64,000 bases of DNA from Candidatus Tepidifontimicrobium thermophilum (GTDB lineage Bacteria > Sysuimicrobiota > Sysuimicrobiia > Sysuimicrobiales > Sysuimicrobiaceae): the NCBI GenBank assembly GCA_031459915.1, contig JAVKHO010000007.1:56389-120388 (forward strand). The letters run 5' to 3'. Positions 51,720 to 62,652 of this stretch are shown here, in pieces (within the stretch, counting starts at the first letter, position 1; each line of letters begins with the position of its first letter). The notes below the pieces were generated by a model. It was given only the letters and a program-made list of their open reading frames with translations, had not been told where the DNA came from and did no database searches. The position numbers and the translations under genes are program-made.

Positions 51720-51723
<4 letters not shown>

Positions 51724-52142
51724 GGGGTCGGGTCCTCGCGGTAGACTACGGGAGCCGCCGGATTGGCCTCGCGCTGAGTGACCCTACGGGGACCGCCACG
51801 GAGCCGCTGCCCACCGTGGAGCGCCGCGGGGACGACCAGGCTGCCCGGGAGGTGGCGGAGCTGGCGCGGCGACGCGGGGCCAGGACCGTCGTGGTGGGCC
51901 TGCCCCTGCGTCTGGACGGGACCGAGGGGCCGCAGGCCCAGGCCGTCCGCCGCTTCGCCCGTCGCCTGGAGCAGTACACCGGGGTTCCCGTCCGGCTGTG
52001 GGACGAGCGCCTGACCTCCGTGCAGGCGGAACGTCTGCTGGTGGACGGAGGTATCCGCAGGGCCCGGCGAAGGCTGCTGCGGGACCAGCTGTCCGCGGCC
52101 CTCCTCCTGAGGAGCTTCCTCGAAGCCCACCCGGACCCGTAG
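51720..52142 (+). CDS. ruvX: YqgF/RuvX nuclease (pre-16S rRNA processing)
   Basis: LAVDYGSRRIGLALSD, VVGLP, WDERLTS. Confidence 0.93.
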
Positions 52143-52276
52143 CGAGCCGGGACAAGACGGACCGCCGGCCGGGGAGGTACCATAGCGGTGAGCAACGGTC
52201 CGGGGTGCCGCGCGCCGTGCGCTGCGGCCGCGACGGGTGGGCCTCCGCTGTTGCCAAACCCTGTGGAGGTGCGGAC

Positions 52277-52561
52277 GTGGGCCGGGCGGACGGCACGGAA
52301 CTGGACGTGATCACGGTCAGCGACGAGGAGGGCCACCAGCACGAGTTCACGGTGCTGGAGTACGTAGAGGTGGACGACCAGCGGTACGTGGTGGTGGTCC
52401 CCACCGACGCTCCCGAAGACGAGGCTGCGGTGATCCTGCGGGTGGAGGGCGACACCCTGGTCAGTGTGGACGACGAGGCGGAGTTTGACCGGGTGGTGGC
52501 CGCCCTGGAGAGCGAGCGCGAGGACCTCGAGGTCGAGGTCGAGGAGGAGGATTCCCGGTAG
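52277..52561 (+). CDS. DUF1292 family acidic protein
   Basis: ITVSDEEG...FTVLEYVEVDDQRYVVV...DEAEFDRV; alaS-ruvX-DUF1292-mltG synteny. Confidence 0.85.
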   Translation: MGRADGTELDVITVSDEEGHQHEFTVLEYVEVDDQRYVVVVPTDAPEDEAAVILRVEGDTLVSVDDEAEFDRVVAALESEREDLEVEVEEEDSR

Positions 52562-52593
52562 GCCGTCCCATCCGGTGGAAGGCGGCTCTAGCG

Positions 52594-53550
52594 GTGGCCG
52601 TAGCGGCCGCCGGGGCCGCAGGGCTGACCGCCACGTCCGGGGCACCGCCAGGCGGGAGCCAGTCGGTGGTGGTGGTCATCCCGGCGGGGGCCGACGCAGG
52701 CCGAGTGGCGGATCTGCTGCACCGGCACGGGTTGGTGCGAAGTCCCCTGCTCTTCCGCCTGTGGGCCCGGTGGCGAGGGCTAGAAGGACGCATCCAGGCG
52801 GGTGAGTACCGGTTTTCGCCTGCCGAGGGACTCCACGGGATCCTGAGGCGCCTCGCCGCGGGCGACGTGGTCCGCTACCGCCTGGTATTCCCCGAGGGGC
52901 TGACGGCGGAGGACGTGGCGCGACGCCTGGAGGAGCATGGGGTGGTGAGCGCGGAGGCCTTCCTGGCGGAAGTAGGCCGGGCGGACCGGTACTGGATCCC
53001 ACAGATGCAGGGCAACACCACCGGCCGCCTGGAGGGCTACCTGTTCCCAGACACGTACGAGTTCCCTCGGGGACTTCCCGCGGACCGCGTGGTGGCAGCC
53101 ATGGTGGCGCGCTTTCAAGAGGCCACGGCGGGGCTGTGGTCGTCCCCGAGGCCCCTCGGGCTGTCGCCGTACCAGGTGGTGACGGTAGCCTCCCTGGTGG
53201 AGCGGGAGGCGCGCCGGGACGCGGAGCGGCCGCGGATCGCCGGGGTGCTGTACAACCGGCTGCGCCGGGGGATGCCGTTGCAGGTGGACGCTACGGTGCT
53301 ATACGCCCTCGGCGAGCACAAGGAGCGGGTCCTGTACCGGGACCTGGAGGTGGACTCCCCGTACAACACCTACCGTAGGACGGGACTCCCCCCGGGACCC
53401 ATCGCTAACCCGGGCCTGGAAAGCCTGCGGGCCGCCATGCAGCCGGAGACCCACGAGTACCTGTACTACGTGGCCCGTCCGGATGGGACGCACGTGTTCA
53501 GCCGCACCCTGGCCGAGCACGAGCGCGCCCGGCGGGCGGTGCAGCGCTAG
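52594..53550 (+). CDS. mltG: Endolytic transglycosylase MltG (start uncertain)
   Basis: LEGYLFPDTY, ASLVEREA, LQVDATV, SPYNTY..GLPPGPIANPG. Confidence 0.94.
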   Translation: MAVAAAGAAGLTATSGAPPGGSQSVVVVIPAGADAGRVADLLHRHGLVRSPLLFRLWARWRGLEGRIQAGEYRFSPAEGLHGILRRLAAGDVVRYRLVFPEGLTAEDVARRLEEHGVVSAEAFLAEVGRADRYWIPQMQGNTTGRLEGYLFPDTYEFPRGLPADRVVAAMVARFQEATAGLWSSPRPLGLSPYQVVTVASLVEREARRDAERPRIAGVLYNRLRRGMPLQVDATVLYALGEHKERVLYRDLEVDSPYNTYRRTGLPPGPIANPGLESLRAAMQPETHEYLYYVARPDGTHVFSRTLAEHERARRAVQR

Positions 53551-53551
53551 G

Positions 53552-54100
53552 GTGTCCACCTGGGGCGTGCGACCGGGCCGCGGCTGGGCTCCACGGTTGG
53601 CGGTACGTCGCGTCAGTGACATCCCTTTGGATCTCCTCGTGGGGGCCGGGGTCCGGGCGGTCCTGTTCGACCTAGACAACACCCTGGTGCCCTACGGCTC
53701 CCAGGAGATCCCAGGGGACCTGTGCGGGTGGCTGGAGTCCTTCCGGGCCCGTGGCCTGCGGGCTGCGGTGGTGTCCAACGCGTGGCCGTGGAGGGCACGT
53801 CGCGTGGCGGAGCGCCTGGGCTGGCCCGCGGTAGCCGGCTGGCCGAAGCCCAGCTTGAGCAGGCTCCGGAAGGCCATGGCGCTGCTGGGCTCCACGCCCG
53901 CCACCACGGCCCTGGTGGGGGACCAGCTGTTCACCGACATCTGGCCCGCCAACCGGCTGGGACTGTTCACCGTGCTGGTGGAACCCCTGGTGCCGAGGGA
54001 GTTCGTGACGACACGTCTGGCCCGCTGGCTGGAACGGCTGGCCGGGCGGCGGGCGCTGGAGGAGCGGGCGTCGAGCAGGAGTCCGGGCCACCGTGGTTGA
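53552..54100 (+). CDS. yqeG: YqeG family HAD IIIA phosphatase
   Basis: FDLDNTL, VVSN, KP, VGDQLFTD. Confidence 0.88.
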   Translation: MSTWGVRPGRGWAPRLAVRRVSDIPLDLLVGAGVRAVLFDLDNTLVPYGSQEIPGDLCGWLESFRARGLRAAVVSNAWPWRARRVAERLGWPAVAGWPKPSLSRLRKAMALLGSTPATTALVGDQLFTDIWPANRLGLFTVLVEPLVPREFVTTRLARWLERLAGRRALEERASSRSPGHRG

Positions 54101-54141: not shown

Positions 54142-54513
54142 ATGTCGCTGCGGGACGTGCTCAAGGAGATCCTGTCCAGCGTGGAGGGCGCGCTCGGGGT
54201 AGCGGTGGTGCGCCTGGACGGCGAGGTGGTGGATTCCCACACCCTGGACGGAGGCCTTCGCATTGAAAAGGTGGCACCGGACCTGGGAATCCTCGCGAAG
54301 GTGTCCGCGTACGCGGCACGCAAGCTGAGCGCGGGGCCCGTGGACTACTCGGTGGTGTCCGCGGAGAAGTACGTGCTGCTCCTGTCCGCGGTGGAGGTGG
54401 ACTACGCTCTGGTGATCGCCCTCCGGCAGGGGGGGAACCTGGGCAAGGCCCGCCTCCAGATGAAGAAGAACCTGGAGCGGGTGGCCGCCCAACTGCGCAG
54501 CCTGGTCCCGTGA
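54142..54513 (+). CDS. Roadblock/LC7 (MglB-like) protein
   Basis: VEGALGVAVVRLDG...NLGKARLQM. Confidence 0.82.
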   Translation: MSLRDVLKEILSSVEGALGVAVVRLDGEVVDSHTLDGGLRIEKVAPDLGILAKVSAYAARKLSAGPVDYSVVSAEKYVLLLSAVEVDYALVIALRQGGNLGKARLQMKKNLERVAAQLRSLVP

Positions 54514-55427
54514 GGTCTGCCCCCGTCCGCCTCCGCCGCGGGGCGGTGGTTGTGATCGTGTACGCCAGCCTGCTGGCCGTGTCCTCCCCAAGTTCTGCCG
54601 CGGAGGGGCCGGCGGCCCGGGGTCAGGCTCTGTACCAAGAGGGGCGCTACCGCGAGGCCGCCGCGGTCCTTCGGGCCGCACTCCAGGCTCGACCCGGGGA
54701 CCGGACGGTCTGGCTGTGGTACGGGGCCGCCTTGTTGCTGTCGGGCGAGCCCGGCCCAGCCCTGGAAGCCCTTCGCCGCGCCACAGGCCCCCCTGTGACG
54801 GGGTACGCGTGGCTGTGGACGGGGGCGGCCTACGAGCAGCTGGGGATGACCTCGCAGGCCCGTGACGCGTATCGGCTCGCGCTCGAGCGGGGCGGGGAGG
54901 CGGGGTACTGGGCGGCCCGGCGGCTTCGGGCCCTGCAGGCGGAGCGGGAAACCCAGGGACGGCTGAACGCTCTGGACCCGGCCACCTACGCCCGGCTGGC
55001 CCTGCGCCATAACCCGCGTCTTGCACCTTCTGAAGCCTGGCGCATCGGGCGGGCGCTTCTGGACTTCGGGCGGCGGTTCGACGTGGACCCCCGGTTGGTG
55101 AGCGCCGTGGTGGTGGTGGAGTCGGGGTTCAACCCCCGAGCCATCTCGCCCGCGGGCGCCCTGGGACTCGGGCAGCTCATGCCTGAGGTGGCGCGTGCGG
55201 TGGGCGTACGGCAGCCTTTCTCCATCGAGGAGAACCTGTACGGGACCGTCCGTGTGCTGCGCGGCCACCTGGACCGGTTCGGTTACCACCGGGTGGACCT
55301 GGCCCTGGCCGCTTACAACGCGGGCTCCGGCGCTGTGCGACGCCACGGCGGGGTCCCGCCCTTCGCAGAGACCCGCTGGTACGTGTTCCGCGTCAGCAAC
55401 CTGTACCTCCGTTACCTGGGCCAGTAG
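54510..55427 (+). CDS. Secreted TPR + SLT lytic transglycosylase
   Basis: Signal peptide, TPR repeats; ESGFNPRAISPAGALGLGQLMP, ALAAYNAG, PPFAET. Confidence 0.9.
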   Translation: MRSAPVRLRRGAVVVIVYASLLAVSSPSSAAEGPAARGQALYQEGRYREAAAVLRAALQARPGDRTVWLWYGAALLLSGEPGPALEALRRATGPPVTGYAWLWTGAAYEQLGMTSQARDAYRLALERGGEAGYWAARRLRALQAERETQGRLNALDPATYARLALRHNPRLAPSEAWRIGRALLDFGRRFDVDPRLVSAVVVVESGFNPRAISPAGALGLGQLMPEVARAVGVRQPFSIEENLYGTVRVLRGHLDRFGYHRVDLALAAYNAGSGAVRRHGGVPPFAETRWYVFRVSNLYLRYLGQ

Positions 55428-55552: not shown

Positions 55553-56680
55553 ATGGCGCGACGCGCGGTGCGGTGCACGGTCGTGGTGCTGGCAGTGGCC
55601 GCCCTGGCCGCATGCTCCCAGGGAGGCTCCTCTCCTGTCACGGTGCGGATCGGGGTGGTGCTGCCCCTGTCCAGCGGGGTGGCGGCTGCGGCCAGCAGTG
55701 CCCTCCGGGGTGCGCAGATGGCCGCGGACGAGGTGAACGCGGAGCGGGCGGTACGGTTGGTGCTGGTGAGCCACGACGACGGCGGCTCGCCCCAGAGGGC
55801 GATCCAGCTGTTCCAGCAGTTGAGCGCCGACCCCGGTGTAGCGGCGGTGGTGGGAGGGCTCACGGACATGGTGGCGGTGCAACTGTCCAGCCTAGCCTCC
55901 GCCACGAGGACTCCTCTGCTGAGCCCGGGCGCCACGGGCCCCATCCCCTTCGCAGGGCAGTACTTCTTCCGCACCTCCCTGCCCTCGTCCGTCCAGGGGA
56001 AGGCGCTGGCGGAGTACGCCCTGGGCAGGGGGATGCAGCAGGCCTCCGTGGTACAGGACAGCAACGAGTACGGGACCGCGGTGGCCGAGGGGTTCTCCGA
56101 GGCCATGCGCGCGGGCGGCGGCAGCGTCCTGAGCCAGCACCTCTTCACGGACGGGACCCGGGACTTCTCGGCTGTGGTCCGGGCCCTTCAGAGGGAGCGG
56201 CCCCAGGTGGTGCTGTTCGCGGGCTACCCGGACGAGGGGGAGGTTTTCGTCAAGCAGCTGGGCCAGGCCGGCCTGAATCCACCGCTGTTGGTCCCCGACT
56301 CCTTCGCCCAGGAGGAGGTGGCGGCGGTGTTGGCCGGAAGAAATGCGGTCGTGGCGTCGGTGTTCTTCGCGGAGAGTCCCTTCCCGCGGGTGCGGGCCTT
56401 CGTGCGGGAGTTCCGAAGCCGCTACGGCCGGCCGCCGGACCCCTTCGCGGCCCAGGCGTACGACGCCGTGCGGGTCGTGGCCGTGGCCCTCAAGCGGCTC
56501 GGGGCCGGTGCGTACCGCGGGCAGGACCAAGTGGACCGGGGGAAGGTCCGGGACGCTTTGGCCAGCATCCAGGACTACCCGGGGGTGACCGGCACCATCA
56601 CCTTCGACCGCCTCGGCAACCCCGCCCGGGACGTGCAGCTCCTGCGGGTGGACGGCGGCAAGCTGGTGGTCCTGCCGTGA
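55553..56680 (+). CDS. LivK-like ABC substrate-binding lipoprotein (orphan)
   Basis: Lipobox LAAC; RIGVVLPLS, FFRT, AQAYDA, GVTGTITFD. Confidence 0.85.
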   Translation: MARRAVRCTVVVLAVAALAACSQGGSSPVTVRIGVVLPLSSGVAAAASSALRGAQMAADEVNAERAVRLVLVSHDDGGSPQRAIQLFQQLSADPGVAAVVGGLTDMVAVQLSSLASATRTPLLSPGATGPIPFAGQYFFRTSLPSSVQGKALAEYALGRGMQQASVVQDSNEYGTAVAEGFSEAMRAGGGSVLSQHLFTDGTRDFSAVVRALQRERPQVVLFAGYPDEGEVFVKQLGQAGLNPPLLVPDSFAQEEVAAVLAGRNAVVASVFFAESPFPRVRAFVREFRSRYGRPPDPFAAQAYDAVRVVAVALKRLGAGAYRGQDQVDRGKVRDALASIQDYPGVTGTITFDRLGNPARDVQLLRVDGGKLVVLP

Positions 56681-56888
56681 CAGGCCGGCGGTTCCGGGGT
56701 TCGTCGGGAGAAAGGGGGAAAGTGGCCTGAAAGTTGCTCGGAGTGCCTGTGGAAGATCCCTGTATGTTGACCTGAGGTCCTGCCGGCCCCTGGCCCTTCC
56801 GGGGAAGGAACCGGACGGCGGCAGGAGGAAGGGTACCCTACCGCCGGACCGAAGCGGACGGCGGAATCCGCGTGCGGGGGGGATCCAC

Positions 56889-57875
56889 GTGAGGAGCTGG
56901 ACTCGCTGGCTGGCCGGACTGGTAGCGGTGGTGCTGTTGGCCTCGGGCGTTGCCACCGCCCAGCCCCGTCGGTTCGTGAACGTGGCCACGGGCGGCACCG
57001 CGGGCGTGTACTTCCCGCTGGGCAGTGCCCTGGCCCGGCTGTGGACGGAGCGGATCCCCGGGGTGCAGGCCACGGCCCAGGCCACGGGGGCGTCGGTGGC
57101 CAACGTGCGGCTGCTGCAGAGGGGCGAGGTAGAGGTGGCCCTGGCTCAGAACGACATCGTGTACTACGCCTATAACGGCGTGGAGATGTTCAGCCGCGAC
57201 CCCCAGACGCGCCTGCGGGGGATGGCCATGCTTTACCCGGAGACCATCCAGATCGTCACCCTGCGCCAGAAGAACATCAACTCCGTGGCGGACCTGGCAG
57301 GAAAGCGGGTCGCGGTGGGCGCGCCGGGCAGCGGCACCGAGGTGAACGCGCGGCAGATCCTGCGGCTGTACGACATCGGGTACGCGCAGACGCGGCAGAC
57401 CCACGGGCTGCCGCGCACGGTGCAGGCAGACTTCCTCAGCTTCGCGGAGGCCGCGGACCAGTTGAAGGACGGGATCATCGACGCAGCGTTCCTCACCGCG
57501 GGCGTCCCCACCGCCGCGGTCCAGGACATCGCGGCCACCCGGGATCTCAAGATCATCCCCATCCCGGAGGCGGTGGCCTCCCGCCTGCGGGAGCGCTACC
57601 CGTACTACACGCCCGTGGTGATCCCGCCCAACAGCTACCGAGGACAGGCGGAACCGGTGCCCACGGTCGCTGTGATGGCCATGCTGGTCACCCGATCCGA
57701 CCTGCCCGAGGACCTGGTGTACGAACTCACCAAGACCCTGTGGGAGAACCTGTCCGTCCTCCACCAGGCCCACGCCCGAGGCCGGGACATCCGGCTCGAG
57801 ACCGCCCGCGCGGGGATGCCCATCCCCCTCCACGCGGGCGCCTTGCGGTACTACCGGGAGCGGGGGGCGCGCTGA
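56889..57875 (+). CDS. TAXI family TRAP solute receptor (orphan)
   Basis: ATGGTAGVYFPLG, GASVAN, LYPETIQ, GSGTE, PLHAGALRYY. Confidence 0.92.
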   Translation: MRSWTRWLAGLVAVVLLASGVATAQPRRFVNVATGGTAGVYFPLGSALARLWTERIPGVQATAQATGASVANVRLLQRGEVEVALAQNDIVYYAYNGVEMFSRDPQTRLRGMAMLYPETIQIVTLRQKNINSVADLAGKRVAVGAPGSGTEVNARQILRLYDIGYAQTRQTHGLPRTVQADFLSFAEAADQLKDGIIDAAFLTAGVPTAAVQDIAATRDLKIIPIPEAVASRLRERYPYYTPVVIPPNSYRGQAEPVPTVAVMAMLVTRSDLPEDLVYELTKTLWENLSVLHQAHARGRDIRLETARAGMPIPLHAGALRYYRERGAR

Positions 57876-57896: not shown

Positions 57897-58193
57897 GTGG
57901 TGAGGCGGAGGACGAACCGGCCGTCCCGAGCTGGTCGGGTGGATCGCGTCACCCCGATCTACCCGATCCGGACGGTGGCCCAGATGACGGACCTGTCGCC
58001 GCAGCGGATCCGCGCGTGGGAGACGGACTACGGGCTGATCCGTCCCCACCGGACGGGAGGGGGGCACCGCCTGTTCAGCCAGGAGGACGTGGAGCGCCTG
58101 TTGTGGATCAAGCGGATGGTGCAGGAGCGTGGCCTGAGCCTCCAGGGGGTTAAGCGTCTGCTGGAGGACACCGCGGGCCGACGAGGGCGGTGA
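57897..58193 (+). CDS. Short MerR-family regulator (GlnR/HspR-like)
   Basis: YPIRTVAQMTDLSPQRIRAWE..LIRPHRTGGGHRLFS..DVERL. Confidence 0.88.
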   Translation: MVRRRTNRPSRAGRVDRVTPIYPIRTVAQMTDLSPQRIRAWETDYGLIRPHRTGGGHRLFSQEDVERLLWIKRMVQERGLSLQGVKRLLEDTAGRRGR

Positions 58194-59077
58194 GGGCGGT
58201 GCCGGAAGCAGCAGGCGGGACGTGGGAGGCGGAGGCCCTGGTGGCCGAGGCTCTTGAGGCACCGGCGGTGTACCGGGCCCTCTCCACGGAGTACGCCGAC
58301 GTGGGACGCCTGGTGGAGTACCTGGGCGAGCGACTGTTCTCCGGGGTCGTGCGGGTGAACCTGCCTGGCCGAGAGGCGTACGTGGTGCTGTTCCGGGGTC
58401 GGGTCCAGGCAGCCCGCTACCGCGTGGAGGACAGCACCCTGGAGGCCGGGGAGGCCGTCCGGAGCGTGCTGGCGGACAGCCGGTGGATGGAAGGGGAGGT
58501 GTGGGTCCACCAGCTTCCAGAGGAGCTGTTCCCGGAGGAGTGGGAGGAGCGCGAGCCCGTCCCGTGGGAAGCTGCGGAGGCGCAACACCCGCATCCCGAG
58601 CCGCCGGAAGCGGTGAGGGCGGATAGGACTCCGGCGGAGGCGACCGAAGGGGCCGCGGCCCCGCCCCCGGCAACGGGCAGCTTGCCGGAAACGGCGGAGC
58701 CTCCAGCCGAGCCAGGGCTTGGGGAGCCGGAGCCCGCGCGGGCGGCGCCGGCCGGAGAAGCATTGGACGTAGTCTCGTGGGTCCGTCTCCTGGAGAGCTT
58801 CGTGGCGCGGTTCAAGCGGTACAGGGGTCCTAGTGCGGCGAGCCGTCTGGAGGCGGAGGTGAACGCAGCACTGGAGGGCAGCGGCCTGCGGCTGGGCCGG
58901 GGCAGGGTGGAGGGCGAGGCTACGGATCCCGAAGCCCTTAGGCTGGCCGCGGTCCGGGCGGTGGGGTTCGTGAAGGGGATGGCCGGGCAGGCGTTCGCGG
59001 AGCAGAGCTTGGCGGTGGCGATGCGGGACGCAGGGATCAGGGACGGGGCGAAGGTCAAGGCGCTGTTGGAAACGTAG
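58190..59077 (+). CDS. Hypothetical protein with PATAN/DUF2226-like N-terminal domain
   Basis: LVEYLGERLFSGVVRV..EAYVVLFRGRVQAA pattern; acidic Pro linker; helical C-terminal domain. Confidence 0.55.
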   Translation: MRAVPEAAGGTWEAEALVAEALEAPAVYRALSTEYADVGRLVEYLGERLFSGVVRVNLPGREAYVVLFRGRVQAARYRVEDSTLEAGEAVRSVLADSRWMEGEVWVHQLPEELFPEEWEEREPVPWEAAEAQHPHPEPPEAVRADRTPAEATEGAAAPPPATGSLPETAEPPAEPGLGEPEPARAAPAGEALDVVSWVRLLESFVARFKRYRGPSAASRLEAEVNAALEGSGLRLGRGRVEGEATDPEALRLAAVRAVGFVKGMAGQAFAEQSLAVAMRDAGIRDGAKVKALLET

Positions 59078-59104
59078 CGACGTCGGCGGACGGGAGGTCG
59101 GCAG

Positions 59105-59878
59105 GTGCGCACGGTGGCATGGGTCGCTCTGGCGGTGGGGGTCCTGGTCCTGGTGGCCGCGGCCGTGGTGGTGCAACGACCGGTGCGCGCGGCGGAGGTC
59201 CGGCGGCAGCACAGCGTGGTGAGTGCGGCGCTGGTGCTGTTCCCGCTGGTGGCCGCGGGGACCAGTTTCGCGGCCGCGGCCAGCTACAGGCCTGCAGACC
59301 GGGGGCGGACCGTGTGGACCAGCCTCGGGGCTGCCTGCGCCCTTTGGGGCCTAGGCCGCGCGGTATTCTGGTACGCACAGGTGCTCGGAGAGCCCCCCAG
59401 GTTCCCCTCCGTGGCCGAGTTGCTGACCGCTGGCTTCTTCGTGCTGGGCCTGTGGGGCGTGTACCAGGAGTACCGGGCGGTCCGGGAGCTGGTGGGTCCG
59501 GCCCAGCGGGTCGCGATGGCCGCCGTGGTCCTGGCCACCCTGGTGGCCGGCTACCTGTTGTTCCTCCAGCCGGTGGTGGCGGGTGGCCTGCGCGGGCCCG
59601 CGGAGTCGGTGAGCCTGGCTTTCTCCCTCGCGGGGCTCGCCCTGATCCCCCTGGCCACGGCACCCGCGGTGGCGTTCTTCGGAGGCCTCGAGGGGTACGT
59701 GTGGCTGGTCATCTCCGCCTCCCTGGTGTGCATCTCGGTGGCGGTCATGTGGTTCAGCAACGCCGTGTTCTTCGACGTGTGGTTCGTAGGGCACCGCAGT
59801 AACGTGCTGCAGATGGTGGGGTTCGCCCTTCTGGCGGTGGGCGCGTTCTGGCACCGGGCGCTGATGCGGGAGGGTTAG
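59105..59878 (+). CDS. Multi-pass membrane protein resembling a standalone membrane sensor domain
   Basis: ~7-8 TMs; W..LG....LWGLG and FPSVAELL motifs resemble N-terminal sensor regions of signalling proteins. Confidence 0.6.
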   Translation: MRTVAWVALAVGVLVLVAAAVVVQRPVRAAEVRRQHSVVSAALVLFPLVAAGTSFAAAASYRPADRGRTVWTSLGAACALWGLGRAVFWYAQVLGEPPRFPSVAELLTAGFFVLGLWGVYQEYRAVRELVGPAQRVAMAAVVLATLVAGYLLFLQPVVAGGLRGPAESVSLAFSLAGLALIPLATAPAVAFFGGLEGYVWLVISASLVCISVAVMWFSNAVFFDVWFVGHRSNVLQMVGFALLAVGAFWHRALMREG

Positions 59879-59881
59879 GGC

Positions 59882-60877
59882 GTGATCCACCGGTTGCCCA
59901 CGGGCGACGTCAAAGAGGAGTGGAGTGGGATCTCCCCCGGTGAGCTGCGCGACCTGACCGAAGGGCTGCGCCGGAGCGACTTCTGCGGGTATGTGGAGCT
60001 GCGCTGGCCGGACTGTGAGGGGGCTCTAATCCTGTCCGGCGAGGGCAAAGTGTTCGCGGTGTTCCAGGCGGACGCGGTAGACCTGAGGGGCCCGGAGGCC
60101 CTCCGGCACATCGTGGGCCGCGCGGGCCGCGTTCACCCCCGGGCACGGGTGGTGGCCCTGCCCCACACCCTCGGCCCGCTGCTCGGATCCCTCAGCGAGC
60201 TACAGCCCCTGCACATGGGGCTGCACACCCGCTTCGTGGACCTGGAGAGGCTGGCAGCGCGCTTGGTGCGCGAGGGGTTTTCCGGGATGGTGGTCCTGGA
60301 GGGCGAGGGGTGGTGGGCTTTTCTGCCCTTCGGGGAGGACGGCAACGGGGCGGTGTACTACGACGGCACCACCGTGATGGGTAGGGATCCCCGGGAGCTC
60401 ATCGAGAGCTTGGTGGGGGTCGGGGCGGAGATCGAGGTGTGGGTGAGTCCGCAGCCGGCACCGCGGCCCGTGGAGTTCGAGGCAGCGGCTGCGGCCCGGG
60501 AGGAAGGCGGGGCGCTGGAGGCAGACTCCCGAGCTGCGCCCCGGCCGGAGGAAGCCCACGAAGCCGCTCCCACCGCACCTGAGCCTCCCTCTGGGGAGCA
60601 GAGTCCCGGGTGGCAGGCGTACAAAGGTTCGGATACCTTCGTGGTCGTGCCCGCGCTCGCTGCTGAGGCCGGGGAGAGTGGGCCGCTTTTGGAGCTGAGG
60701 GATCGCTTCGGGGAGCTGGCGGTGGATCTGGCCCGTCGGCTGGACGGGACCCGCACGCTGGAGGAGGTCCGGGTGGAACTCGGCCGGTCGTGCGCCGAGC
60801 TGGAACCGATCTTGCTCTACCTCCAGCAGCGGAAGTGGATGGCCCGTTACTTCCGCCGACGGGGGCCGCAGCGGTGA
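59882..60877 (+). CDS. Hypothetical protein with tandem PATAN/DUF2226-like repeats and C-terminal winged helix
   Basis: LRRSDFCGYVEL and LVREGFSGMVVL repeats; RLDGTRTLEEV..L..LQQRKW. Confidence 0.55.
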   Translation: MIHRLPTGDVKEEWSGISPGELRDLTEGLRRSDFCGYVELRWPDCEGALILSGEGKVFAVFQADAVDLRGPEALRHIVGRAGRVHPRARVVALPHTLGPLLGSLSELQPLHMGLHTRFVDLERLAARLVREGFSGMVVLEGEGWWAFLPFGEDGNGAVYYDGTTVMGRDPRELIESLVGVGAEIEVWVSPQPAPRPVEFEAAAAAREEGGALEADSRAAPRPEEAHEAAPTAPEPPSGEQSPGWQAYKGSDTFVVVPALAAEAGESGPLLELRDRFGELAVDLARRLDGTRTLEEVRVELGRSCAELEPILLYLQQRKWMARYFRRRGPQR

Positions 60878-61635
60878 GGGAGCGTGCAGCCAGAGACCTG
60901 CTGGACGATGCGGAAGCGGTGGCGCTGTTCCGGGAGTACCGCGCCACCGGGAACCCCGTGCTGCACGCCCGGATCTGTGCCACCTACGCCCCGCTGGTGG
61001 AGCGTATCGCGCGCATGTACCGGTCCAGCGGCGAGCCCCTCGAGGACCTGGTGCAGGTGGGGTACGTGGGACTCCTCCTGGCGGTGAACCGCTTTGATCC
61101 GGACCGCGGGGTGAAGTTCCAGACGTACGCGTCGCACCTCATCGCGGGTGAGATCCGCCACTACCTGCGGGACCAGGTGGGTGTGGTGCGGCGGCCCCGG
61201 TGGCTCGCCAGGCTCAGCCGGGAGCTGGACCGCACCGTGGAGCGGCTGCAGCGGGAAAACGGAGCGCTGCCCACGGTGGAGGAGATCGCCCAGGCCATGA
61301 ACATCACGCCGGAGGGCGTACGGGAGATCTTCCAGGCGCGGGCCGCCGCCTCACCCCTGTCCCTGGACGGCCCGGGCGAGGAACGGATCCGGCGGATCCG
61401 CCACCTGCGGTACGAGAGCTTCCAGCTGCCGGTAGAAGACCGCATCACGGTCCTGCAGGCCATGGAGCGGTTGACGGAGTTGCAGCGGAAAGTCCTGTAC
61501 CTGCTCTTCTACCAGGACCTGACGGAGACCGAGGCCGCCCGGCGGCTTCGGATCTCCCAGCGGCACGTGTCCCGGGTGATGCACAAGGCGTTGCGGCAGA
61601 TGGCACAGCTGCTGCGGGGCACTGTGCGTCCGTAG
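60874..61635 (+). CDS. SigB/SigF/SigG family RNA polymerase sigma factor
   Basis: EDLVQVGYVGLLLAVNRFDPDRG..F.TYA..I.GEIRHYLRD; PTVEEIA; ISQRHVSR. Confidence 0.92.
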   Translation: MRERAARDLLDDAEAVALFREYRATGNPVLHARICATYAPLVERIARMYRSSGEPLEDLVQVGYVGLLLAVNRFDPDRGVKFQTYASHLIAGEIRHYLRDQVGVVRRPRWLARLSRELDRTVERLQRENGALPTVEEIAQAMNITPEGVREIFQARAAASPLSLDGPGEERIRRIRHLRYESFQLPVEDRITVLQAMERLTELQRKVLYLLFYQDLTETEAARRLRISQRHVSRVMHKALRQMAQLLRGTVRP

Positions 61636-61668
61636 CCGCACGGAAGACCAAGGGGGAGGAGGGTCGAC

Positions 61669-62022
61669 ATGTCGGACCTTCGCAGGATCCTGGGAGAGTT
61701 CACCCAGCTGGACGGGGTGAGCGCCGCCCTGGTGGTGGGCCGGGACGGCTTCGTCATCGAGGGCGCGGCCACTGAGGACATCGACCTGGAAGCCCTCGGG
61801 GCGGTCACCGCCAGCAGCCTGGCCGCGTCTGACGCCCTGTCCACGGACCTGGGCCGCGGCCGGCTGTTCGGTCTCATGCTGGAGTACGAGGGCGGCCCCC
61901 TCGTGGTGTCGCCCGTGGGCTCCGAGGCGATGCTGGTCATCGTCGGCAACGGGACCGCGAACCTGGGCCGCATCCGGCTGGAGCTGAAGAAGCGGCAGCA
62001 GGCCGTAGCCGACGCCCTGTAA
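61669..62022 (+). CDS. Roadblock/LC7 (MglB-like) protein
   Basis: GVSAALVVGRDGFVIE, LEALGA, MLEYEGG, ANLGRIRLEL. Confidence 0.9.
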   Translation: MSDLRRILGEFTQLDGVSAALVVGRDGFVIEGAATEDIDLEALGAVTASSLAASDALSTDLGRGRLFGLMLEYEGGPLVVSPVGSEAMLVIVGNGTANLGRIRLELKKRQQAVADAL

Positions 62023-62097: not shown

Positions 62098-62652
62098 ATG
62101 CGCGGGAAGCTGCGGGCCAGCGCCGCGGACCTGTGGCGGATGGGAGAGGGAGACGTCCGCCGCGAGCTGGTGGATGGCGAGGTCGTGGTGATGGCTCCCG
62201 TGGGGGGGACCCACGGGGAGGTGACCGGCCGGCTGTACCGTCGGCTGGCGGAACACGTGGAGCGCCACGGCGGGGGCAGGGTGCTGGCGGGAGACGTGGG
62301 CTTCGTCCTCCACCTCCCGTACGACCCCGAGCGAGTGCGAGCGCCTGACGTGGCCTACGTTTCGGAGGCCAGACTTCCCGGCGGCGCGCTGCCGGAGGGC
62401 TTTTTGCAAGGCGCCCCGGACCTGGCGGTGGAAGTGTTGTCGCCTTCCGACGACCCCGTGGACGTCCAGCAGAAGGTGCGGGACTGGCTGGAAGGAGGTT
62501 CCAGGCTGGTCTGGATCGTGGCGCCCCGTGCGAGGACCGCAACGGTTTACCGGCCCGACGGGTCGGCTCGGTGGCTGCGCGAGGACGACGTCCTGGAGGG
62601 AGAGGGCGTGCTGCCCGGCCTGCGAATTCCCCTGGCCGACCTGCTGCCGTGA
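62098..62652 (+). CDS. Uma2 family (PD-(D/E)xK) endonuclease-like protein
   Basis: ELVDGE, H, APDVAYV, PDLAVEVLSPSD, LPGL. Confidence 0.9.
   Translation: MRGKLRASAADLWRMGEGDVRRELVDGEVVVMAPVGGTHGEVTGRLYRRLAEHVERHGGGRVLAGDVGFVLHLPYDPERVRAPDVAYVSEARLPGGALPEGFLQGAPDLAVEVLSPSDDPVDVQQKVRDWLEGGSRLVWIVAPRARTATVYRPDGSARWLREDDVLEGEGVLPGLRIPLADLLP

Follow-up and report, generated by a model that had tools for sequence, protein, structure and literature searches.

The 64,000-nt window analysed here (contig JAVKHO010000007.1, positions 56,389 to 120,388, of the Candidatus Tepidifontimicrobium thermophilum assembly GCA_031459915.1) carries six co-oriented genes at 57897..62022 that encode a short MerR-type protein, a PATAN-like protein (A), a multi-pass membrane protein (TM), a tandem PATAN-like protein (B), a group-3 sigma factor and a roadblock protein (Rob). 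This block probably holds the regulatory genes of a type IV pilus locus, in which the sigma factor would transcribe pilin and other pil genes from promoters of the form GTCTA-N15-GGGTA, with the PATAN proteins and roadblocks acting on the PilB/PilC motor without the GTPase MglA. The gene content, pil synteny, PATAN-type folds, motif positions, riboswitches in relatives and absences from the source genome described below are direct observations. The source genome (G000; 2.6 Mb, 96% complete) was compared with related genomes, including a phylum set of 94 that all belong to one order; PMC11604079 describes Sysuimicrobiota (CSP1-3) as a phylum with a single class and a single order. In what follows, C-numbers denote contigs, L-numbers compared loci and other G-numbers related genomes; g1 and f1 are the genus and family of the window, f2, f4, f5 and f7 are other families or types, and f1 and f5 are the two families that carry A-TM-B.

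All six genes lie on the + strand at the coordinates of the initial annotation and look coding, with a third-position GC content (GC3) of 0.84-0.93. The GTGA overlaps described there are present as well, 4 nt each, at 58190 (MerR/A) and 60874 (B/sigma), and the remaining intergenic gaps measure 27 nt (A/TM), 3 nt (TM/B) and 33 nt (sigma/Rob). Among the six, Pfam assigns only MerR_1, sigma-70 regions 2-4 and Robl_LC7, leaving A, TM and B without a family. That gene list was real but incomplete: upstream of it, and likewise members of the conserved block, lie a second, MglC-like roadblock gene (Rob2; 54142..54513, + strand) and a gene for a tetratricopeptide-repeat (TPR) lytic transglycosylase (54510..55427, + strand; Pfam SLT 2.5e-18 plus TPR). 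A longer alternative sigma frame starting at 60790 was rejected as unlikely, the GC3 of its extension being just 0.46.

The gene order, whose conservation the initial annotation set as a check, is kept across two families. A-TM-B-sigma-Rob is intact in 27 of 44 f1/f5 loci, and 12 others are cut by contig or region ends; three of the rest lack TM, one (G059) lacks both TM and B, and one lacks A. Most f1/f5 loci run on past Rob into pilB or pilin genes, and the transglycosylase gene, whose product likely opens the peptidoglycan for the pilus, adjoins the sigma block in most f1, f2 and f5 loci. Families f2 and f4 have no A, TM or B; in all 12 of their sigma loci the order is sigma-MerR-Rob2-Rob-pilB(-dnaB-like)-pilB-pilT-pilC as far as the loci reach. 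Five loci from outside the phylum, three of them Vulcanimicrobiota, read pilB-pilT-pilC-sigma-pilA-pilD-pilM-pilN-pilO, again as far as they reach, and in these Vulcanimicrobiota-type loci and several f4/f7-type loci the linkage of sigma to pil genes holds with no roadblock or PATAN gene nearby. From its neighbourhoods and promoter motif, the protein appears to serve pili and not the stress response, and the output proposed in the initial annotation, stress or differentiation, gives way to one tied to type IV pilus genes.

The sigma factor itself (60874..61635, + strand), which we predict to serve pilus genes, is of the SigB/F type. SigB/F/G (TIGR02980) is its best family match, at 180.2 bits and thus below the cut-off of 234.35; against the cyanobacterial SigF model PRK07408 it scores 167.7 bits, also below the cut-off (261). 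Its profile matches 90 of the 94 genomes at E ≤ 1e-60, a few of them only through a weaker paralogue. In several f2/f5 genomes STAS genes are found no more than a few kb from this paralogue (E about 1e-61 to 1e-65), and it is the better candidate for an Rsb-controlled sigma; some extra paralogues stand alone. The lack of RsbW and RsbV, initially noted for the window, extends to the whole of G000, where STAS, STAS_2 and SpoIIE each gave 0 matches and no short RsbW-like gene was found, all 10 HATPase_c_2 matches falling in frames of 423-693 aa. STAS is absent from the f1 genomes (0/12). Counted by family it occurs in f1 0/11, f5 7/34, f2 20/22 and f4 23/23, a distribution that mirrors the presence of A, TM and B and that, spanning few clades, was not used as evidence. 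In six loci of the f4 g18 type (L105, L106, L178, L182, L184 and L189), the sigma gene has been duplicated, with one copy on each side of the MerR gene (sigma-MerR-sigma-Rob2-Rob-pilB).

The sequence GTCTA-N15-GGGTA occurs between sigma and pilA in the five out-of-phylum, Vulcanimicrobiota-type loci and 34 nt upstream of the pilA frame in G000. Across 760 kb of cluster loci, CTA-Nk-GGGTA has 26 matches at k=15, compared with 1-5 at every other k from 11 to 19, and of the two unselected bases 5′ of CTA the first is G in 34/34 sites and the second T in 28/34. Sites lie upstream of the sigma gene, livJ/A (in L076, L077, L092 and L111), pilA, fimT, a dnaB-like gene and pilT. The motif is found in 12 of 49 sigma upstream regions, all from f5 (0.2 expected from shuffles), and in 9 of 26 pilin upstream regions (0.12 expected). 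Over whole genomes, raw counts of GTCTA-N14-16-GGGTA are no higher than those of a reversed-pattern control; the signal resides only in position and fixed spacing. Scanning G000 with a matrix built from 34 sites outside this genome gave seven matches: pilA (28.4), a glycogen-synthase-like gene (22.9), TPR-pilB (17.9), a DUF1844 gene (16.2) and three sites of lower score. Within f1, sites at pilin and DUF1844 genes recur, and pilins are the most recurrent targets. The pilA site lies near G000:C6:49764, that at the glycogen-synthase-like/galT pair at G000:C1:201995, and that at the DUF1844 gene, which recurs in G004 and G006, at G000:C3:37965. Metatranscriptome contigs from X1 and X2 cover the operon and the pilA region but do not show strand and could derive from DNA; RNA run X4 gave no reads, and X3 gave 2 and 10.

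In most relatives a second element accompanies the sigma gene. We scanned 16 loci, 14 of them holding the sigma gene, with the cyclic di-GMP (c-di-GMP) aptamer models RF01051 and RF03167 at gathering score. A c-di-GMP-I aptamer lies directly 5′ of sigma in 11 of the 14 and one gene further upstream in another, and aptamers also precede livJ/A in five scanned loci. At this score none is found in the window or L027, nor at the sigma gene of f1 locus L026 or Vulcanimicrobiota locus L165. The riboswitch family itself is present in 93 of 94 genomes, and f5 clusters are flanked by HD-GYP and GGDEF genes and encode a PilB with an MshEN domain. The riboswitch in the sigma leader plausibly replaces the missing anti-sigma factor in most relatives. 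The f1 sigma gene overlaps B or directly adjoins it, and hence its own promoter and the riboswitch leader are both absent. Since motif and riboswitch precede the PATAN operon too in relatives, sigma more likely controls the PATAN genes than the reverse, which runs counter to the initially proposed route from a roadblock/PATAN module to the sigma factor. A c-di-GMP-I-GGC riboswitch also lies within the minor-pilin cluster of G000 (C8:6815-6893; L206:3816-3894, - strand).

Proteins A (58190..59077, + strand) and B (59882..60877, + strand) share a motif at A45, B29 and B128. The initial annotation had correctly counted three copies in the two proteins but gave the leucine spacing as two residues (L..L) instead of three; the motif reads L...L....F[SC]G.V.[VL]. 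An AlphaFold2 model of A (pLDDT 83.6) shows one beta-alpha-beta4-alpha-beta domain (residues 15-108), a Pro/Ala linker and a helical C-terminal domain, and the model of B (pLDDT 84.7) shows two such domains in tandem, a linker and a C-terminal winged helix. The two profiles align by hhalign (94%, E 1e-7). Searching 1.84 billion proteins with the A profile returned 423 matches at E ≤ 0.001; of the 119 more distant matches listed, 89 were scanned, and 67 of these contain DUF4388 (PATAN) and/or DUF2226 at E ≤ 0.01. Neither A nor B of the window has a direct Pfam match to DUF4388 (PF14332) or DUF2226 above cut-off; weak DUF4388 matches occur in 6 of 35 A orthologues (best E 0.005), and the Atlas leads for a PATAN-type fold stand at 0.88 and 0.85. 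On this profile homology and shared predicted fold, the repeats are PATAN-like, as the initial annotation had supposed, and are best described as divergent PATAN (DUF4388/DUF2226) domains without a receiver domain.

No solved structure matching the PATAN-like domains of A or B was found with Foldseek or VIA-align, and the B profile, searched against PDB sequences, had no match below E 0.01. The winged helix of B resembles that of the SEA complex (VIA-align Z 8.5), with no other part of B matched; winged helix-turn-helix (HTH) families are found in B-family members, and DUF742 in 3 of 45 B orthologues. Foldseek matches of the A and B models to sliding-clamp and Sm folds were rejected (TM-score about 0.12, rmsd 8-16 Å). 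A scan with a distant tandem-PATAN protein led to two short metagenome contigs, L306 (2167-5690) and L307, which encode an output-less HAMP sensor, a roadblock, a tandem-PATAN protein, a second roadblock-like protein and a DUF4388-winged-helix protein; neither contig holds a GTPase gene.

The two roadblocks resemble different partners of the MglA-MglB-MglC module. Rob (61669..62022, + strand; Robl_LC7 4e-16) is MglB/CvnB-like and lacks a C-terminal extension; its PDB matches are roadblock, CvnB5 and MglB chains. The Rob2 profile, built from 28 orthologues, has MglC (7ct3) as its best PDB match (E 1.9e-14) and matches no MglB chain at E ≤ 0.01. D25-G26 of Rob2 is invariant, and its gene adjoins that of Rob in f2/f4 loci. 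The window genome thus encodes both an MglB-like and an MglC-like roadblock.

An MglA-like GTPase, noted as absent from the window in the initial annotation, was not found in G000 either: Ras, Arf, Roc and ATP_bind_1 family searches matched solely long frames of 317-805 aa, and a scan of P-loop frames for the MglA-type G3 motif gave nothing. Across the 94 genomes, a Streptomyces CvnD query, used in place of a group-1 MglA query, gave only 3 marginal matches, each within a frame of 753-843 aa; searches for Arf (E ≤ 1e-8) and Ras (E ≤ 1e-6) found 0/94, with a Thermus positive control equally silent, so these do not exclude MglA. MglA is therefore well excluded for G000, while for the phylum the result goes no further than that these queries did not detect it. 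Between pilB and pilT in f1, f4 and f5 pil clusters (G000:C28:143479-145023, L203:5420-7030; L077:1268-2842) lies the gene of a DnaB-like ATPase paralogue whose Walker A motif is intact, a candidate nucleotide switch for the GTPase-less module. The promoter motif lies 5′ of its gene in three f5 loci, and the canonical dnaB of G000 is on C3, with an intein-like interruption.

TM (59105..59878, + strand) has five Kyte-Doolittle segments above 1.6 and no Pfam or NCBIfam family, in keeping with its first description as a standalone multi-TM protein lacking an output domain. It is sensor-like and belongs to an unnamed family of standalone membrane proteins of about 260 aa: homologue searches matched close family members only, and in the Atlas it scores 0.95-0.96 to unnamed clusters of 267-269 aa and 0.79 to MASE3/4. 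TM is present in 10/11 f1 and 28/34 f5 genomes and in 0/48 others. In G036, a domain of this family is fused to GGDEF (L110:3246-4787, contig C23), which fits a sensor or anchor role for TM. Close to that fusion, a roadblock is joined to a long C-terminal domain (L110:8377-9288), and the TM-gene match of G004 contains an in-frame TAG (L023:9166-9678). The short MerR-type HTH protein (57897..58193, + strand; MerR_1 2.7e-19) has no effector domain. Its gene keeps company with the sigma/pil cluster at varying positions: directly 3′ of sigma in 12/12 f2/f4 sigma loci, 3′ of the dnaB-like gene in f5, and 5′ of A only in g1 and g3.

Taken together, synteny and motif suggest that sigma would direct transcription of the major pilin gene and pilB, and in f5 also of the sigma gene itself and of the PATAN operon. 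In most relatives, where an aptamer is observed and the sigma gene would have its own promoter, c-di-GMP may gate sigma through the RNA leader. In f1, sigma would instead be co-produced with A-TM-B from an upstream promoter and controlled at the level of the operon, for which the short MerR protein is a candidate repressor. By analogy with known systems, A, B, TM, Rob and Rob2 most likely place or tune the pilus motor without MglA, presumably by binding it, with TM anchoring the PATAN/roadblock proteins or signalling to them. In Synechocystis, PATAN domains bind PilB1-NTD and PilC-NTD (10.1101/2021.06.11.447907); PMC4316618 places MglB genes next to PATAN genes, and PMC4719450 describes binding of MglC to MglB. 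Because of these precedents, A, B, TM and the roadblocks most likely act on the motor.

Several observations weigh against a pilus-regulatory block. An exact motif is absent upstream of 17 of the 26 pilin genes examined, two of the 34 sites behind the matrix are themselves same-genus (g1) pilA promoters, and the matrix scan of G000 finds no site upstream of the window operon or ahead of the window sigma gene. With its second-best site before a glycogen-synthase-like gene and a g1-recurrent site at DUF1844, the regulon would not be purely one of pili. The relatives compared are not independent of one another, and the motif could also be recognised by the additional sigma paralogues present in many f5 genomes. 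In the genus of the window, moreover, the block is separated from the pil genes, which in G000 lie on C28 (pilB/dnaB-like/pilT/pilC), C27, C8, C6 (pilA) and C5. Raw RNA reads of the single run X5 (150 reads, 34 from another locus, almost all oriented as pilA-strand RNA) start about 480 nt upstream of the pilA start codon, inside the preceding gene, with a depth of 20-40 upstream and 5-10 in pilA. They form no start pile at the predicted pilA promoter and indicate read-through instead. X5 hence gives no support for an active pilA promoter in that sample; sigma may be off, or the motif may be unused.

These points leave room for other explanations. In one, either the roadblock pair or some domain of A or B would bind sigma as an anti-sigma factor or co-factor, so that a spatial PATAN/membrane module feeds into pilus-gene transcription; this keeps the initially proposed route with a pilus output, and we consider it unlikely. 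Rob lies directly 3′ of sigma in f1/f5 and near it in f2/f4, G012 and G036 have a Rob-like gene directly 3′ of an unrelated FliA/WhiG-like sigma gene as well, and, with the riboswitch leader lost and STAS missing in f1, some other control of sigma may be needed there. The linkage of sigma to pil genes nevertheless persists where roadblock and PATAN genes are lacking (the Vulcanimicrobiota-type and several f4/f7-type loci) or A, TM and B are (f2/f4), riboswitch and autoregulation account for control in most relatives, and the partners known so far for PATAN and MglB/MglC are motor and polarity proteins. A complex prediction of sigma with Rob and Rob2 scored 0.00 with controls not folded, and is evidence neither way. 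Similarly unlikely is a tentative proposal in which the block descends from an MglA/MglB/MglC module and has become GTPase-free: the roadblock pair, PATAN proteins and membrane anchor would gate or position PilB and also hold sigma, so that the motor state feeds back on pilin transcription. Protein control would then have replaced the riboswitch in f1, and the DnaB-like ATPase could be the substitute nucleotide switch.

Very unlikely, in our judgement, is that A, TM and B are a non-signalling remnant of an MglA- or conservon-like G-protein module minus its GTPase, with only sigma and MerR of consequence. The three proteins do change rapidly, with 20-30% identity from one family to another, g20 lacks TM and G059 both TM and B, and PMC4719450 reports MglC-clade proteins only from MglA-bearing genomes. 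Yet frames and order are intact in the 27 loci of two families, both roadblocks retain invariant surface residues, including the D-G at the position of the MglC FDI, and the PATAN operon still has a promoter motif and a riboswitch of its own in several f5 genomes. The least probable, to our mind, is a general-stress SigB-like sigma that has lost its Rsb system and has the PATAN and roadblock genes as unrelated neighbours. Its best family match, the glycogen-synthase-like and DUF1844 genes among the predicted targets, and the resemblance of GTCTA-N15-GGGTA to the SigB consensus would agree with this; set against them, the orthologues remain in pil clusters across two phyla, the weaker paralogue near STAS genes fits Rsb control better, and pilins lead the recurrent targets.

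Every part of the proposed pilus-regulatory block has a known counterpart, and the system is a variant on the cyanobacterial SigF/PATAN and MglB/MglC pilus-control theme. SigF of Synechocystis PCC 6803, as described in PMC2532724, is autoregulated and uses TAGGC/GGTAA elements to transcribe pilA1 and its own gene. The window sigma is likewise of group 3, with a predicted GGGTA-type -10 element and a promoter motif at the major pilin gene (the best site in G000), and autoregulation is suggested by the motif in f5, though not at the window sigma. It differs in falling below the family cut-off, in GTCTA at a fixed 15-nt spacing in place of TAGGC, in being encoded in a pil cluster, and in the riboswitch 5′ of the gene in most relatives. 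The PatA-type regulators PixE, PixG, PilG and LsiR (10.1101/2021.06.11.447907) also place a PATAN-type domain in a pilus-control setting; A and B, with single or tandem domains and a helical or winged-helix tail, lack their receiver domain, alpha-clip insertion (in the models) and chemosensory kinase. As in the Myxococcus/Thermus MglA-MglB-MglC system, one MglB-like and one MglC-like roadblock lie beside type IV pilus and PATAN genes (PMC4719450 and PMC4316618), whereas here MglA was not found in G000 or, with the CvnD query, in the 94 genomes, and the block co-encodes a sigma factor.

Bacillus SigB with RsbV-RsbW, compared by family models, shares the sigma subfamily and promoter shape; no RsbW, RsbV/STAS or PP2C was found in G000, and the pilus linkage differs. 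An actinobacterial conservon CvnABCD (example locus L308) similarly unites in a single operon a membrane protein, a roadblock and a winged helix weakly similar to DUF742, whereas our block has no histidine kinase or CvnD GTPase (a CvnC query had no match in G000) and carries PATAN domains and a sigma factor. In the WhiG2-RsiG system of Actinomycetota (PMC12871210), c-di-GMP likewise controls an alternative sigma whose predicted outputs include type IV pili, through a sigma-28 and a protein anti-sigma rather than a SigB/F-type sigma and an RNA switch. A literature search, which covered neither supplements nor most subscription journals, found no published description of this locus, nor of a pilus sigma that is subject to riboswitch or operon coupling and combined with PATAN proteins and an MglB/MglC pair where MglA is lacking.

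If the pilus-regulatory reading is true, the cyanobacterial SigF-to-pilin logic would extend to two phyla without cultured members, for which a concrete promoter and regulon are now proposed, and orphan MglB/MglC roadblocks and receiver-less PATAN proteins would gain a lead to their function. The whole phylum appears to retain the MglB/MglC pair without the GTPase. One sigma would then be controlled in two ways without an anti-sigma factor, by a c-di-GMP riboswitch leader in most relatives and by operon coupling in f1.

The surroundings of the block are in part conserved. Genes for ruvX, a DUF1292-like protein, mltG and yqeG (window 51720-54100) form its upstream anchor throughout the phylum and in loci of the Vulcanimicrobiota type. 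Many f1/f5 loci have LivJ-like and TAXI solute-binding genes (55553..57875, + strand) as an insertion within the block, and others lack them. Between Rob and lipB lies a Uma2 endonuclease gene (62098-62652) that is missing at the same place in the same-genus loci L022-L025 and is hence a recent insertion. Elsewhere, in the f2 genomes G012 (C34, L108:2038-8717) and G036 (C12, L109:8399-15017), a FliA/WhiG-like sigma and a roadblock are encoded in one row with a response regulator, an HD-GYP regulator, a 450-aa ORF that looks sigma-54-like by eye and a GAF/GGDEF-like protein; this is a second, independent pairing of a sigma factor with a roadblock.

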